From assembly GCF_057098645.1 (NCBI RefSeq), contig NZ_CM169472.1: a DNA stretch of 64,000 bases. One strand, 5' to 3'. A program made the position numbers. Shown one piece after another: positions 46,735 through 58,700 of the stretch (positions within the stretch are counted from its first letter, which is position 1; every line of letters starts with the position of its first letter).

Positions 46735-49700
46735 TAACCAGGATAATTAGCGAATATCTCAACGCCTGGGGCGTGGCGAGGTACCAGAGTGTGTATTACG
46801 TTTAAATCACATTATCTTGCAAAGGGATTGGTTATGAACTCACTACGTTATTTTGATTTTGGTGCTGCCCGCCCCGTTTTGTTATTAATTGCCCGTATCG
46901 CCGTGGTCCTAATTTTCATTATTTTTGGTTTTCCCAAAATGATGGGCTTTGACGGTACGGTCCAATATATGGCCTCGCTGGGCGCACCGATGCCGATGCT
47001 GGCAGCGATTATTGCGGTAGTTATGGAAGTGCCCGCCGCGATATTAATCGTGCTTGGCTTTTTCACCCGTCCGCTGGCGGTACTGTTTATTTTCTACACG
47101 CTGGGTACGGCGGTGATTGGTCACCATTACTGGGATATGACCGGCGATGCCGTCGGGCCAAATATGATTAATTTCTGGAAGAATGTCAGTATCGCTGGCG
47201 CGTTCTTGCTATTGGCAATTACCGGGCCGGGGGCAATTTCTCTCGATCGCCGTTAGGAAAGATGCCGGATGCGGCGTGAACGCCTTATCCGGCATTTTAT
47301 TAATTACAGCCACTCTACCCGCAACGACATCTCTGAGGTTGTTGATTCCCCCGGCGCAAGCGCAATGAGGTCCCCCCCTTCCGGGCGATGATGGTCATCT
47401 GGCGCATGGCTCATCGGTTCCAGACAGAAGAAATCAAACGCATATCCTTTATCAAACGCCGGGTCGGAAACAAAGATGAAATAACACGGTGCAGGTGGCG
47501 TCGTTTCCATGATGATGGCATAACCCCCCTGCGGCTGCTCGATGCGGGCCTGACCATTCCATCCGGCAAAACCATTGTTTACCCACTGGCGCGGCAACGG
47601 CGCGAGCTGGTTAAAATCCAATTCTTGCGGTAGCTGCTCGCAAAAATCACCCGCCAGCCACTGCTCCCGCTCCAGCCAGTAACCGCTCGCCTGTGCCTGA
47701 ATCCGTGTTTGTGGTGACAACGGAAAATAAGGATGCCAGCCGGTACCAAATGGCAGCGTCTCTGCCCCTTGATTGGTGACAGAGAGCATCACCGTCAGCG
47801 TATCCGCCGTTAAATGAAACGCCTGGCTTACCCGATAGTGATAAACACCGCTGCGATGTTCATACACCAGACACAAGCTATCATCACTGCGCGAGACACA
47901 TTGCCACTGCCCCAGCCAGCCATCGCCGTGCAGATAGTGCGCATCCCATTCAACATTCGGTTGCAGTTGATACTCACGCCCCTGCCAGACAAAATGGTTG
48001 CCGCTCACCCGGTTTGCAAATGGCACCAGCGGAAAACAGGAGGCATCGGTTGCCACACCGCTTTTTTTACCAGGACGTAAGAGCGGCGTCGTATCGCGCC
48101 AGAAGCCTTCGATTACGCCGCCCTGGTCAGAAACGCCCAGCTTTAGCGACCCGTGGGATAAGGTATAGATGGTCATCCGCTAACTCCTTAATCCGGGAAG
48201 TTAATCACAACTTTCCCGCATTTGCCGCTCGCCATCAGCGCATAGGCATCACCTGCCTGTTCCAGCGAGAAGCGATGAGTAATGGCGTTACGCGGCCACA
48301 GCTTCCAGTCAGTCAAATCGTGGGCGCATTTTTCCATATGGAACAGACTGGTCACCCAGGAGCCGATAATCCGCCGTTGATGGTGCATCAGATCGGCGCT
48401 GACCTCGAACTCCACTTTTCCGGTTTCACCAATGTAAACCACCCGCCCCCAGTCAGCAGTGGATTGCAGTGCCAGCAAGCGACCTGCGGCATTACCTGAA
48501 CAATCAAGAGCAACATCCGCGCCACCGTGGGTAAGTTCAGCAATTATCTGCGGCAGACCTTCGGTGGTCGCTAAATAACCGTGATCCATCACCCCTAACT
48601 GTTTTGCCATCGCCAGACGTTCCGGCAGCATATCAACGCCGATGATCCGTTTTGCACCGCGACCTTTCGCCAGCATCATCGCCATCATGCCGACCGGCCC
48701 CAGACCGACCACCAGCACGTTATCGCTGCCGGAAACTTCGCCGAGCAAAATCCCTTCATAGGCCGTGCCAACGCCGCAACTGATAAACGCACCATCTTCG
48801 TAGCTCAGCGCATCCGGCAGGAGGATCAGATCTTTTTCTTCCGCCAGCAGATATTCGGCATGACCGCCGTCACGCTGCCAGCCGTAAGCCGCTTTTCCTT
48901 TGCCAGTACAAGAGATAGGAAAGCCGCGGCGGCAGTTCGGGCAAAAACCACAGCCAGAAATGTGATACACCAGCACGCGATCACCCTCTTTAAAATGGCG
49001 ACAGCCTTGCCCCATCGCCACAATTTGCCCGCACGGCTCATGACCGTTGATAAAGCCCTGGTATAACGGTTTATCGGGCGCCGCCGCCGTGGCGCGGTGT
49101 TGATGGTAGATATAGTGGACATCGCTTCCGCAAATCCCGGAGGATTTCATTTTGATCAGTACCTGGTTAATCCCCGGCGTCGGCACCGCAACTTCCCGCA
49201 GATCGACGGTCGAATTTCCTGGTAAATAAGCTGCCAGCATCGTTTTCATAAATCCCTCATTAACAATACGATTAATTTTCATCCCTGCCGCACCCGCGCC
49301 AGGGGCGTTAAGGTTTAGCGTTTCGCTTTACTGCTTCGCTGGGTCAGCAAGATATTCGCCAGCACCGCCACCACGATGATGACGCCGCGTACCACCTGCC
49401 GGAAAAAGGAGTTAATACCGAGCAGCACCAGACCGTTACCGATTAGCGTAATCACCAGTACGCCAAGCAGCGTACCGAACAACGAGCCGCGACCACCGGA
49501 AAGCGCCGTACCGCCGACCACGACCGCGGCGATGACGTCAAACTCCAGACCGTTTGCGGCACCTGCGTTACCGGAACCGAGGCGCGCCGCCAACAAAATG
49601 CCGGTCACCGCCGCTAATAATCCCGAAAGGGTAAAGATAAGAATGCGTACCCGACGAACGTTAATACCGCACAACTGCGCCGCCGTGGCATTACCGCCAA

Positions 49701-55700: not shown

Positions 55701-58700
55701 TAGACGCGGCTGGCGATTTCCAGCGCCGCCCGGTCAGGGCGCAGGGTGAAACCTGTCATCACCTGTAAACCATGCATCGGCTCCGTTTCGCCGACCCACA
55801 CCGTCTGTGCACCGTCTTCATGGGCTTCGAGGGTGAAATCAACGGGCATAAAGGTGGTCGGGCGATGGTGTTGCGGCCAGTTAAACTCAATCCCGCCAGA
55901 GATCCACGGTCCCAGCAGCCCCACCAGCGCAGGTTTAATGACTTCATTGTGATAGACAAAATCGCGCTGTTTCACTTTATCCCATGCGCGATGCACCCGA
56001 CCGCCCAGTTCCGGCAGTATCATCACTTTGATGTAGTCGTTTTCCAGCCACACCGCCTGCCAGGATTTCAGGGTTTTCTGTTCACTCAGCGTATCGGTCA
56101 CGCCGTAGGGATAAACCGCGCCGGACGATCCCTGATAAACGCGATTTTCCAGGAACATGGGATGTATATCCTGCGGCCCGGTTTCATAGGTCGGGATCTC
56201 AACGCGCTCTTGCCACACTTTTACTGGAGTCATGGTGCCCTCAATATTAACAAGACATACTGAATTAAAAGATTTGTGGCAGTGTATTGAACAATCTGGC
56301 AATGTTTTCGCGGAATAATCACGCAATTAACTAAACAAGGTTTAGTGAAGATGAGAGCCTGCATTAACAATCAACAGATTCGCCACCATAACAAATGCGT
56401 GATTCTGGAACTGCTGTACCGGCAAAAGCGCGCCAATAAATCAACGCTGGCCCGGCTGGCGCAAATTTCGATTCCGGCAGTCAGTAATATTTTGCAGGAA
56501 CTGGAAAGCGAAAAACGGGTGGTGAATATCGACGATGAAAGCCAGACGCGCGGGCATAGTAGCGGTACATGGCTGATTGCGCCGGAAGGTGACTGGACGC
56601 TGTGTCTGAACGTGACGCCCACCAGTATTGAGTGTCAGGTTGCTAATGCTTGTTTAAGTCCGAAAGGTGAATTTGAGTATTTACAGATTGATGCACCGAC
56701 GCCGCAGGCGCTGCTGGCCGAAATCGAAAAATGCTGGCATCGCCACCGTAAATTGTGGCCGGACCGCACCATCAATCTGGCGCTGGCAATCCACGGTCAG
56801 GTTGATCCAGTGACAGGAGTGTCGCAAACCATGCCGCAAGCGCCGTGGACAACGCCGGTTGAGGTGAAGTATCTGCTGGAAGAGAAGCTGGGCATTCGGG
56901 TGATGGTCGATAATGACTGCGTGATGCTGGCGCTGGCGGAAAAATGGCAAAATAATTCGCAGGAACGGGATTTCTGCGTGATCAACGTTGATTACGGCAT
57001 TGGCTCGTCGTTCGTGATTAACGAGCAAATTTATCGCGGCAGTTTGTATGGTAGCGGACAGATTGGTCACACCATCGTTAATCCGGATGGCGTCGTCTGC
57101 GACTGTGGACGTTACGGCTGCCTGGAAACCGTCGCCTCGTTAAGTGCTTTAAAAAAACAGGCGCGGGTATGGCTAAAATCACAACCGGTTAATACTCAGC
57201 TTGATCCTGAAAAACTGACAACCGCGCAGTTAATCGCTGCCTGGCAGAGTGGAGAACCGTGGATCACCAGCTGGGTTGACCGCAGTGCCAATGCCATTGG
57301 TTTGAGTCTGTATAACTTCCTCAACATCCTCAATATTAATCAGATTTGGTTGTACGGTCGCAGTTGTGCCTTTGGTGAGAACTGGCTTAATACCATTATT
57401 CGCCAGACGGGATTTAACCCGTTCGACCGCGACGAAGGACCGAGCGTGAAAGCGACGCAAATTGGCTTCGGGCAATTAAGCCGCGCACAACAGGTGCTGG
57501 GAATTGGCTATTTGTATGTTGAGGCGCAGTTACGACAGATTTGATGGCACGATAAGGTAGAAAGGCTTCCCGAAGGAAGCCTTGATGATCATAAACGAAA
57601 AATTGCCTGATGCGCTACGCTTATCAGGCCTACACGGAGATTGCAATATATTGAATTTGCGAGATTTTGTAGGCCTGAGAAGGTGTTCATGCCGCATCCA
57701 ACATGAACAACGGGCACATTGTCAGCAAATCACCGTTTCGCTTATGCGTAAACCGGGTAACGTGCGCAGATGTCGAGAACTTTACCTTTGATGCGCTCGA
57801 TAACGGCTTCATCATTGATGCTGTCCAGCACGTCACACATCCAGCCAGCCAGTTCTTTCGCTTCTGCTTCTTTGAAGCCGCGACGCGTAATTGCCGGAGT
57901 ACCCACGCGAATACCGGAGGTCACAAACGGGCTCTTCGGATCGTTCGGTACGCTGTTTTTGTTGACGGTGATGTTAGCACGGCCCAGAGCGGCGTCTGCT
58001 TCTTTACCGGTCAGGTTTTTATCGACCAGATCAACCAGGAACAGATGGTTATCAGTACCGCCGGAAACCACTTTGTAGCCGCGTTCCAGGAAAACTTCTA
58101 CCATCGCTTTAGCGTTTTTAGCGACCCGCTGCTGGTAAGTTTTGAACTCAGGCTCCATCGCTTCTTTCAGAGCAACCGCTTTACCGGCGATTACGTGCAT
58201 CAACGGACCGCCCTGACCACCAGGGAAAACGGCAGAGTTCAGTTTTTTGTACAGCTCTTCGCTACCACCTTTCGCCAGGATCAGGCCGCCGCGCGGACCC
58301 GCCAGGGTTTTGTGAGTGGTGGTAGTAACAACGTGAGCATGAGGAACCGGGTTCGGGTAGACGCCAGCAGCAACCAGGCCCGCAACGTGCGCCATATCAA
58401 CGAACAGGTAAGCGCCGATGCTGTCAGCGATTTCACGCATTTTCGCCCAGTCCACCACGCCGGAATATGCAGAGAAGCCACCGATAATCATTTTCGGTTT
58501 GTGTTCTTTGGCTTGTTTTTCCAGATCGGCGTAGTCGATATGACCGGTAGCATCAATACCGTAAGGAACGATGTTGTACAGTTTACCGGAGAAGTTAACC
58601 GGAGAACCGTGAGTCAGGTGACCGCCATGCGCCAGGTTCATACCCAGAACGGTATCACCTGGTTCCAGCAGCGCGGTGTACACCGCAAAGTTAGCCTGGG

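Follow-up and report, generated by a model that had tools for sequence, protein, structure and literature searches.

Comparative analysis of the Escherichia coli yph locus suggests a galacto-configured aldose as its candidate substrate and a mutarotase ancestry for YphG

The yph locus of Escherichia coli raises a twofold question: which substrate does it serve, and what does its largest product, YphG, do? The locus was analyzed at positions 47304-57544 of a stretch of 64,000 nucleotides from contig NZ_CM169472.1 (RefSeq assembly GCF_057098645.1), hereafter referred to as the window, in which the genes yphB to yphG form a cluster that diverges from the regulator gene yphH. The initial annotation predicted the uptake and oxidation of a sugar or polyol and described the substrate and the role of YphG as undefined. 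The latter statement still stands: no assignment was found in family models, in solved structures or in the literature searched, the coverage of which leaves out most subscription journals. The reading favored here, tentatively and at somewhat less than an even chance, is that yph mediates the YphH-controlled uptake and catabolism of a free aldose, most probably galacto-configured, with D-galactose as the leading candidate. YphC would oxidize this sugar at C1 towards the dgo pathway, and YphG would perform a parallel conversion.

None of the seven yph products reaches an equivalog cut-off in NCBIfam (June 2026 release), and RefSeq names YphG a 'DUF5107 domain-containing protein'. The PDB contains only 3NRE, which is YphB itself, and 5CD6, a distant relative of YphG; both are unpublished structural-genomics entries, and the literature search found no publication for either. 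In the literature, YphB appears as a structural template only. YphH has been described as 'a third uncharacterized ROK repressor' (PMC4288165) and was listed in 2022 among the transcription factors of unknown function (PMC9308461), and a 2023 review presents yphFED as a 'putative ABC transporter' (ABC, ATP-binding cassette) for 'sugar' (PMC10305011). The YphF protein increases on a poor carbon source, during growth on levoglucosan, along with MalE, XylF, MglA and YtfQ (PMC8753852), and these co-risers are catabolite-controlled transporters. The yph locus is a known and annotated locus without an assigned function; as a regulated monosaccharide catabolic operon, it is an ordinary kind of system.

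In a megablast search, the stretch 47304-57544 is 100% identical to E. coli NZ_CP168984 (strain UTME-3). The RefSeq gene order of the matching record runs hcaT/R/EFCBD, yphA, then yphB-C-D-E-F-G on one strand and yphH on the other, followed by glyA, hmpA and glnB. The coordinates of the initial annotation are reproduced exactly by the list of open reading frames (ORFs); its placement of yphB to yphG on the minus strand with yphH divergent agrees with the ORF list, the RefSeq names and the Pfam domains, and the yphG-yphH intergenic span of 56234-56350 is confirmed. The minus-strand ORF at 52952-56326 reaches an upstream TTG at 56326 (1,124 amino acids, aa), but conservation begins only at 56233, and this conserved start gives the annotated YphG length of 1,093 aa. 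At least 80% of the stretch is covered in 5,370 of the 5,426 complete E. coli genomes, always on the chromosome. The ratio of nonsynonymous to synonymous substitution rates (dN/dS) is 0.009-0.069 for all seven genes compared with E. albertii, and 0.029-0.114 for six genes compared with Enterobacter sp. (yphH was skipped because of a gap); the lowest value, 0.009, belongs to yphC. All seven yph genes are under strong purifying selection and are functional rather than chance ORFs. This selection, together with the near-universal presence of the genes in E. coli, indicates that they do something useful.

YphG matches DUF5107 (PF17128) with 184 bits against a gathering threshold of 24.4, along with several tetratricopeptide repeat (TPR) families. 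An AlphaFold2 model based on 56 diverse homologues is confident throughout (pLDDT 94.7, pTM 0.92) and comprises a beta-sandwich, a small beta domain and an all-helical region, the boundaries of which are given in Table 1. The folds nearest to the model are genuine stand-alone mutarotases rather than accessory domains of glycoside hydrolases (GH), and the N-terminal domain is predicted to adopt the mutarotase beta-supersandwich fold, although the Aldose_epim Pfam model finds no match in YphG. Invariant residues of this domain in the family alignment include E116 and H123 (motif PWISGGIEFNWPQHHRP), H215 and E313. YphG begins with MTPVKVW and has no signal peptide, and 84 of the 85 full-length homologues open directly with the conserved M..VKxWxE..IPTY, also without a signal peptide, suggesting that the protein works in the cytoplasm, downstream of the transporter. 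With residues 1-460 as the query, 3,870 representatives of clusters at 50% identity were retrieved at E <= 1e-3, and 864 at the stricter E <= 1e-30. Bacteroidota, Firmicutes, Vibrionaceae, Aeromonas and Enterobacterales all have full-length homologues, which are approximately 40% identical over approximately 1,070 residues. YphG looks like an enzyme derived from a mutarotase. Compared with the aldose 1-epimerases GalM, YeaD, YihR and YphB, additional residues are invariant in YphG, which also carries a second beta domain and a TPR solenoid of 630 residues; it co-occurs with true mutarotases, suggesting a function other than theirs. Its distant solved relative, the TPR-domain protein BDI_1685 of Parabacteroides distasonis (PDB 5CD6), is 21% identical to YphG and, with 575 residues, half as long; no function was found for it.

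The size of the helical region also admits a reading in which YphG is not an enzyme but a sugar-binding scaffold or sensor that recruits partners with its TPR, or in which it is simply an oversized, specialized mutarotase. A TPR solenoid akin to interaction scaffolds such as the subunits of the anaphase-promoting complex/cyclosome (APC/C) makes up two thirds of the protein, and the fold is that of a mutarotase. However, the regulator family varies by lineage (ROK or AraC) while YphG is constant, which makes a specific partnership with the regulator unlikely, and a dedicated small mutarotase co-occurs with YphG in 27 loci and would render a second one redundant. Moreover, the helical part holds conserved motifs that are not TPR, such as FHPWEGGEG and DFFAVS, and the invariant residues R782 and E880 (the latter within FHPWEGGEG), which suggests a functional site in this part. 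A non-enzymatic or merely mutarotating YphG is therefore considered most improbable.

Departures from the typical YphG were observed in individual records. In E. coli SCPM-O-B-8794 (locus L009, 2379-5657), the YphG frame is split into ORFs of 841 and 244 aa, and shortened YphG clusters of 955, 741 and 643 aa each derive from single E. coli records; these may be occasional strains with a disrupted yphG, or assembly errors. A metagenomic homologue of 1,399 aa (P0248) carries a C-terminal endonuclease/exonuclease/phosphatase domain, and in two Ruminococcaceae loci a calcineurin-like phosphoesterase gene follows YphG directly. These features are a possible hint that some lineages handle a phosphorylated substrate or product.

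The neighborhoods of YphG were compared by calling ORFs in 86 YphG loci, clustering the neighbors and annotating the cluster representatives. The 67 loci outside Gammaproteobacteria come from Bacteroidota, Firmicutes and metagenomes. A XylE-like sugar porter is present in 37 of these 67 loci and stands directly beside YphG in 23, and 45 loci hold an AraC-type regulator whose best curated match is AraC, over both the sugar- and the DNA-binding parts. More than half (36/67) contain at least one galactosidase-family glycosidase within 7 kb. The commonest is a beta-galactosidase of subfamily GH2_20 with approximately 940 residues, nearly identical in family to PDB 8U01; GH35, GH36, GH97 and another GH2 also occur, and in Bacillus-type operons YphG stands directly with GH35 and GH2_20. 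GalM-type mutarotases are found in eight loci, and a small DUF5107/DUF4432-like protein in three Firmicutes loci. Most Bacteroidota loci combine YphG with a transporter and lack a dehydrogenase, and fewer hold a mutarotase; the genes 3' of YphG in this phylum are unrelated (chromate resistance, superoxide dismutase, a BNR-repeat protein), which indicates that the module ends at YphG. In some Clostridia, the locus comprises an SDR, an IlvD/EDD dehydratase and an RraA-like aldolase, or a GFO oxidoreductase. Rarer neighbors include GH92, GH95, GH115, GH30, sulfatases and GDSL esterases. ABC and zinc alcohol dehydrogenase (Zn-ADH) genes near YphG in Firmicutes were considered as orthologues of YphC, YphD, YphE and YphF and rejected, as they are only 24-37% identical, a family-level similarity. 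This company of sugar porters and galactosidases, seen around YphG homologues across three phyla, points to a galacto-configured sugar a second time and does so independently of the evidence from YphF that is described below.

The same neighborhoods can be read to mean that YphG is itself a new kind of cytoplasmic glycosidase, which frees galactose from a small imported galactoside while YphB equilibrates the released anomer. Its company of galactosidases, most direct in the Bacillus-type operons, fits this reading, as do the few loci that use GPH-type (MFS_2) glycoside permeases, and a mutarotase partner would suit a product released as a single anomer. Against this, no recognizable CAZy catalytic domain of a GH or polysaccharide lyase (PL) family is found in YphG, and its nearest folds are stand-alone mutarotases rather than glycosidase domains. 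The partner transporters are of monosaccharide types (CUT2, sugar porter); E. coli and one metagenome contig (L093) have YphG with YphFED alone, and YphFED orthologues serve oxidative pathways that lack YphG and need a free aldose. A CAZy-type glycosidase role was down-weighted, as both the fold and the transporter types conflict with it, and a glycosidase function of any kind appears quite improbable.

Several marine Flavobacteriia (L029, L039, L046, L054, L074, L077 and L082) share a conserved gene order around YphG. In most of them, GH30, a sulfatase or both come first; a sugar porter follows, and after it a GDSL esterase, GH2_20 and YphG. In several of them, YphG is followed by two sulfatases and a second GH2_20. 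This order suggests that these loci degrade a sulfated, acetylated, galactose-containing algal glycan. Proteins without a Pfam domain also recur beside YphG: one of approximately 742 aa in Mucilaginibacter and Chitinophaga (L025:6335-8563), one of approximately 401 aa in Ruminococcaceae (L056:15653-16858), one of approximately 481 aa in marine flavobacteria (L074:19804-21249) and one of approximately 937 aa in Sphingobacterium (L036:2418-5231). They may be further components of YphG loci.

The gammaproteobacterial loci bear on the question of which genes form the core of the system. A YphB-type mutarotase gene is present in 16 of the 19 loci. In Aeromonas, Limnobaculum and one Serratia assembly, a ROK gene diverges from genes for YphG, a sugar porter of the major facilitator superfamily (MFS) and a YphB-type epimerase, with neither an ABC system nor a dehydrogenase. 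Hafnia has YphG, a transporter and YphB in an operon that also lacks a dehydrogenase, and Enterobacter lignolyticus shows the same ROK-YphG-MFS layout, with no epimerase in its called-gene table. The partner MFS protein resembles XylE most closely. In three enteric loci, an MFS gene follows yphGFEDCB, and both transporters occur in these loci and in one Serratia assembly. Two assemblies with proteins labeled Serratia quinivorans (L005 and L091) have identical flanks and differ only by the presence or absence of yphFEDC, a cassette that sits between the MFS gene and yphB. On the metagenome contig L093, G-F-E-D-C-B is placed under an AraC-type regulator rather than ROK, with YphFED as the only transporter, and Aquitalea has F-E-D-C-B without YphG. 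Read from these gene orders, the ancestral unit appears to consist of a regulator, YphG, a sugar transporter and YphB, with YphG as the ancestral partner of the transporter and YphB. The yphFEDC genes appear to be an optional cassette through which the unit gains a high-affinity importer as well as a dehydrogenase; E. coli would have kept the cassette and lost the symporter. The initial annotation was right in the gene content of the locus; within this set, YphC and YphDEF seem to form an accessory cassette and not part of the conserved core.

The pairing of an ABC importer with a symporter in these relatives resembles araFGH/araE, xylFGH/xylE and mglBAC/galP. As in araFGH, xylFGH and mglBAC, YphFED comprises a periplasmic binding protein, a fused double ATPase and a BPD_transp_2 permease. 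Relatives of yph carry the XylE-like sugar porter in the same operon, whereas E. coli yph has lost it. The regulator is of the ROK family, in contrast to the AraC-, XylR- or GalS-type regulators of the known E. coli monosaccharide systems, and none of the transporter components reaches an equivalog cut-off, unlike those of araFGH, xylFGH and mglBAC.

A link to galactonate emerges from YphF. A search with this protein retrieved full-length relatives with 57-69% identity in Rhizobiales (Rhizobium and Agrobacterium) and in Aquitalea. The Aquitalea module shares 69, 61, 72, 83 and 55% identity with E. coli YphF, E, D, C and B, respectively, and its adjoining genes include equivalogs of dgoD (galactonate dehydratase; 649 bits, cut-off 311) and dgoA (2-dehydro-3-deoxy-6-phosphogalactonate aldolase; 285 bits, cut-off 207), together with an SDR and an SMP-30/gluconolactonase (SGL)-type protein. 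In Rhizobium and Agrobacterium, a run of genes on one strand with short gaps comprises F-E-D, an epimerase of the YphB type, an oxidoreductase of the GMC flavoprotein family and dgoD (725 and 729 bits). The Agrobacterium run also holds the same SDR as Aquitalea, which makes seven genes, and the operons of the two genera contain neither a lactonase nor YphG. The YphB-type gene adjoins an oxidoreductase in Aquitalea, Rhizobium and Agrobacterium. By analogy, this recurring set of transporter, mutarotase, oxidoreductase and DgoD appears to follow the logic of the oxidative De Ley-Doudoroff route of D-galactose, with YphC in the place of the C1-dehydrogenase. The uptake and oxidation of a sugar predicted by the initial annotation gains strength from this pairing of yphFEDCB-type modules with a sugar oxidoreductase and dgoD elsewhere. 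Of its alternative, a sugar or a polyol, the sugar is supported and the polyol is unlikely, as a mutarotase accompanies the system in every lineage; the polyol substrate was down-weighted on this ground.

Similar to the De Ley-Doudoroff pathway, yph has a mutarotase and an NAD-type sugar dehydrogenase beside an uptake system. The De Ley-Doudoroff set consists of galactose 1-dehydrogenase, galactonolactonase, DgoD, DgoK and DgoA, whereas the E. coli yph locus lacks a canonical lactonase, and no lactonase, dgoD, dgoK or dgoA gene lies within 47304-57544. YphC is a zinc medium-chain dehydrogenase with a putative galactose activity, compared with the galactose 1-dehydrogenase of the classical pathway, in which YphG has no counterpart. 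The lower pathway is encoded elsewhere in the E. coli genome (dgoRKADT; dgoD is present in approximately 5,011 of the 5,426 genomes), unlinked to yph and without a YphH-type site upstream.

The main rival arises from this missing lactonase and places YphG in series with YphC. YphB and YphC would make D-galactono-1,5-lactone, and YphG would be the missing aldonolactonase or lactone isomerase that delivers D-galactonate to the Dgo enzymes, opening the ring with the acid/base pair that in mutarotases acts at C1 and the ring oxygen. The E. coli operon has a dehydrogenase and a mutarotase and no recognizable lactonase, which leaves YphG as the only unassigned enzyme, and Aquitalea, which lacks YphG, has an SGL lactonase beside dgoD/dgoA. 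Several Firmicutes YphG loci also hold an oxidoreductase without an obvious lactonase (SDR with IlvD/EDD and RraA-like proteins, GFO or Zn-ADH), and the chemistry would be analogous to mutarotation. Such a role is difficult to reconcile with the YphG loci that have a transporter and YphB but no operon dehydrogenase (Aeromonas, Limnobaculum, Hafnia and one Serratia assembly) or with the dehydrogenase-less majority of Bacteroidota, and the mutarotase of such loci would have no anomer-specific partner. One Mucilaginibacter locus has both an SGL-like protein and YphG, and the Rhizobium and Agrobacterium operons manage without either. The serial arrangement is therefore judged unlikely.

The individual enzymes and the importer agree with a sugar pathway at the level of families. 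YphB scores 175 bits with Aldose_epim (cut-off 27), is identical in sequence to PDB 3NRE and retains the canonical Arg, His, His and Glu columns, which are invariant in the alignment with GalM-type enzymes; the family model and the active-site residues predict an aldose 1-epimerase. YphC contains the Pfam domains ADH_N, ADH_zinc_N and Glu_dehyd_C. Its sequence reads with a catalytic Cys...His-Glu (CGSD...GHE), a four-Cys structural zinc lobe CGFCPNCRRGFPISC and GLGPVG followed by an Asp, which points to NAD as the cofactor; by its domains, zinc ligands and Rossmann GxGxxG, YphC belongs to the zinc-dependent medium-chain dehydrogenases. An alternative yphC start at 49249 gives 353 aa beginning MKTMLAAY and agrees with the orthologues. 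No characterized equivalog model (Tdh, IolM, GatD, IdnD and others) is passed by YphC, the best scores being 170 bits against 380 (Tdh) and 168 against 450 (IolM). YphF scores 116 bits with Peripla_BP_4 (cut-off 35), its N-terminus MPKKMRTTRNLLLMATLLGSALFARA reads as a signal peptide, and its best PDB match, 5HSG, reaches an E value of only 3e-24. YphD resembles RbsC and AraH, and YphE resembles AraG, XylG and AlsA, with scores under their cut-offs. All three components score far below the substrate-specific CUT2 equivalogs (ribose, arabinose, xylose, galactose, allose, autoinducer-2 and galactofuranose), the best for YphF being allose with 64 bits against 335. A binding protein with a signal peptide, a double ATPase and a BPD_transp_2 permease are the architecture expected of a CUT2 ABC importer, to which YphDEF is assigned.

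These similarities also bring in a substrate unlike galactose, which may be a different aldose, namely a pentose or rare hexose, or a polyol/ketose pair, with YphC as a secondary-alcohol (polyol) dehydrogenase. The best solved or curated relatives of YphC are xylitol, L-threonine, sorbitol, scyllo-inosose and galactitol-1-phosphate dehydrogenases, the partner MFS protein is closest to XylE, and YphF is distantly related to ribose-, allose- and galactofuranose-binding proteins. For galactose, E. coli already has the Mgl, GalP and Leloir systems, which counts in favor of another substrate. However, all these similarities are far under the curated cut-offs and are family-level only, and the constant mutarotase argues against a polyol. 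dgoD equivalogs lie in or beside orthologous modules three times, and the glycosidases around YphG are predominantly galactosidases. A non-galactose substrate is accordingly regarded as rather unlikely.

The favored reading of yph as a system for a galacto-configured aldose can be followed from the periplasm inward. The monosaccharide-type transporters and the ever-present mutarotase indicate that the substrate is a free reducing aldose. YphF, YphD and YphE would bring in the sugar as a CUT2 ABC importer, and YphB would equilibrate its anomers. YphC would oxidize one anomer at C1 to the aldonolactone with NAD, and D-galactonate would enter the separate dgoRKADT pathway of E. coli. In parallel with YphC, YphG would most likely work on the free sugar itself after import, opening the ring in an isomerase- or epimerase-type conversion that is specific for one anomer. 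This division of labor follows from the observation that YphB accompanies YphG without a dehydrogenase and accompanies YphC or the GMC oxidoreductase without YphG, which suggests that YphG and YphC draw on one and the same sugar, each using up a particular anomer. Two parallel enzymes on one sugar are the simplest reading.

Several points weigh against this reading. The whole assignment of the substrate is inferred from gene neighborhood, and the galactose signal in that neighborhood is strong but not exclusive, as some YphG loci also hold GH92, GH95, GH115 or GH30. In Aquitalea, the dgoD, dgoA, SDR and lactonase genes are convergent with the yph module and lie beside another ABC permease, and they may form a separate operon. 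The closest solved relatives of YphC are xylitol, threonine and sorbitol dehydrogenases, which leaves room for a polyol or ketose reaction. YphG matches mutarotase profiles only weakly in hhalign (E 0.054), and of its invariant residues only H123 is aligned, to the first catalytic His. Upstream of E. coli dgoR, no YphH-type palindrome was found, and 56234-56350 contains no match within 3 mismatches to the consensus TGTGA-N6-TCACA of the cAMP receptor protein (CRP). Finally, galactose does not support the growth of E. coli galK mutants. For galactose to be the substrate, yph would have to stay silent in laboratory culture or be induced in some other way, and for this reason our confidence in the reading stays short of even.

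Table 1. Coordinates of the yph genes and of candidate regulatory features in the window.
Feature	Position	Strand	Description
yphB	47304-48176	-	Predicted aldose 1-epimerase (mutarotase), 290 aa
yphC	48188-49282	-	Predicted NAD-type Zn-dependent medium-chain dehydrogenase, 364 aa as annotated
yphD	49315-50313	-	Predicted CUT2-type ABC permease, 332 aa, Pfam BPD_transp_2
yphE	50338-51849	-	Predicted fused double ABC ATPase, 503 aa, two ABC_tran stretches
yphF	51872-52855	-	Predicted periplasmic solute-binding protein, 327 aa
GC-rich stem-loop	52901-52933	-	Between yphG and yphF; TTTGAGCGGC...GCCGCTCACGCTCAAA
Second operator-like palindrome	52940-52956	.	Minus-strand ACTAAACCCTATTAACT; overlaps yphG stop, ~85 bp upstream of yphF
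yphG	52952-56233	-	Predicted cytoplasmic, 1,093 aa; mutarotase-fold ~1-345, small beta domain 357-435, TPR solenoid 460-1092
Conserved block before yphG start	56238-56264	-	Contains ribosome-binding site; TTCAGTATGTCTTGTTAATATTGAGGG; conserved across enteric loci
-10-like hexamer TACACT for yphG	56281-56286	-	Candidate, from conservation
Conserved block ATTGCGTGA-N-CGC(G/A)	56309-56327	.	Imperfect dyad symmetry; conserved from Aeromonas to E. coli
Candidate YphH operator	56330-56346	.	Perfect 17-bp palindrome ACTAAAC-AAG-GTTTAGT
yphH	56351-57544	+	Predicted ROK-family transcription factor, 397 aa from ATG; alternative GTG at 56345

The regulation of the locus was approached through YphH and the intergenic region. 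YphH scores 113 bits with Pfam ROK and 21 bits with a MarR-type helix-turn-helix (HTH), under the cut-off of 24.6, and its sequence reads with the zinc motif GH...CDCGRYGCLE (type GH...CxCGxxGCxE) and an N-terminal HTH. It aligns to Mlc over residues 9-334, and a full-length alignment is obtained with Mlc and NagC. The ROK domain, zinc motif and N-terminal HTH, all of which NagC and Mlc share, mark YphH as a probable ROK repressor. Against the NagC and Mlc equivalogs, YphH reaches 111 bits of the required 650 and 108 of 530, respectively, and its linker motif differs from theirs (PMC4288165). YphH is transcribed divergently from its presumed target, and the candidate operator is an A/T-rich palindrome; unlike the 23-bp operator type of NagC/Mlc, it is the 17-bp ACTWAAC-N3-GTTWAST.

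This candidate was found by a search of the yphG-yphH intergenic region, as proposed by the initial annotation. The palindrome lies 4 bp before the yphH ATG, encloses the yphH Shine-Dalgarno sequence and is the sole perfect match in the 64-kb window. Of the 19 gammaproteobacterial loci, 18 carry ACTWAAC-N3-GTTWAST with up to 2 mismatches between -105 and -125 relative to the yphG start, usually as the single match per 11-23 kb locus. The only other match at this stringency in the window is the palindrome at the yphG/yphF junction, and an equivalent is present in four of the six E. coli-type loci scanned. YphH would act through these sites, with one copy over its own ribosome-binding site and the second at the junction, presumably as a repressor; it would thus regulate its own gene and govern yphG as well as a start inside the operon for yphFEDCB. 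In the dgo region, matches to the palindrome appear only with 3 mismatches, inside genes and at chance level, and a YphH regulon link to dgo was rejected, as the region upstream of dgoR lacks the palindrome.

Other elements of the region are less distinct. The hexamer assigned to yphG occurs as TA(C/G/A)ACT at the equivalent position in most gammaproteobacterial loci and has no good -35 element, and a consensus promoter scan found nothing in the intergenic region, its totals being at chance level. The conserved TTGCGTGAT block was considered as a CRP site and rejected, as there is no match to the CRP consensus within 3 mismatches. The stem-loop that separates yphG from yphF recurs in four other enteric loci with the same stem, GAGCGGC/GCCGCTC, and a variable loop. 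Its predicted energy is -16.1 kcal/mol with a z-score of only -1.5; with this z-score and no U-run after it, the element was rejected as a terminator. It may act in processing, stability or partial termination and thereby fix the expression ratio of yphG to yphFEDCB.

Two observations concern the surroundings of the locus. In Enterobacter and Citrobacter (L004, L011, L022 and L023), the yphH orthologue is adjoined by a second ABC transporter, which has two permeases, and by an FGGY kinase of 545 aa. These genes occupy the same glyA/yphA position on the chromosome, a site that seems to collect sugar-utilization cassettes. On the plus strand, a 429-aa ORF at 57703-58992 runs antisense to the minus-strand gene glyA (57742-59001); it is almost certainly no gene itself but a shadow ORF of glyA, which is highly expressed.

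The yph genes are part of the uncharacterized genome fraction of the best-studied bacterium, and the comparative evidence narrows an 'unknown sugar' to a testable list: a galacto-configured aldose, YphC as a C1 dehydrogenase feeding dgo, and a defined YphH operator sequence. It is possible, although doubtful, that YphG founds a very widespread class of cytoplasmic, cofactor-independent sugar-converting enzymes that combine a mutarotase-derived site with a TPR solenoid and catalyze a reaction new for the fold, either the anomer-specific isomerization or epimerization of a galacto-configured sugar or the opening of its lactone. In that case, an unrecognized galactose-handling step would be common to Enterobacterales, Bacteroidota and Firmicutes, gut species included, and E. 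coli would possess a cryptic oxidative galactose route in which yph feeds dgo. YphG stands for thousands of sequence clusters, and many of these lie in the polysaccharide-utilization loci of bacteria from gut and soil. Once its reaction is assigned, many genomes would be better annotated, and carbohydrate metabolism could gain a new enzyme activity.

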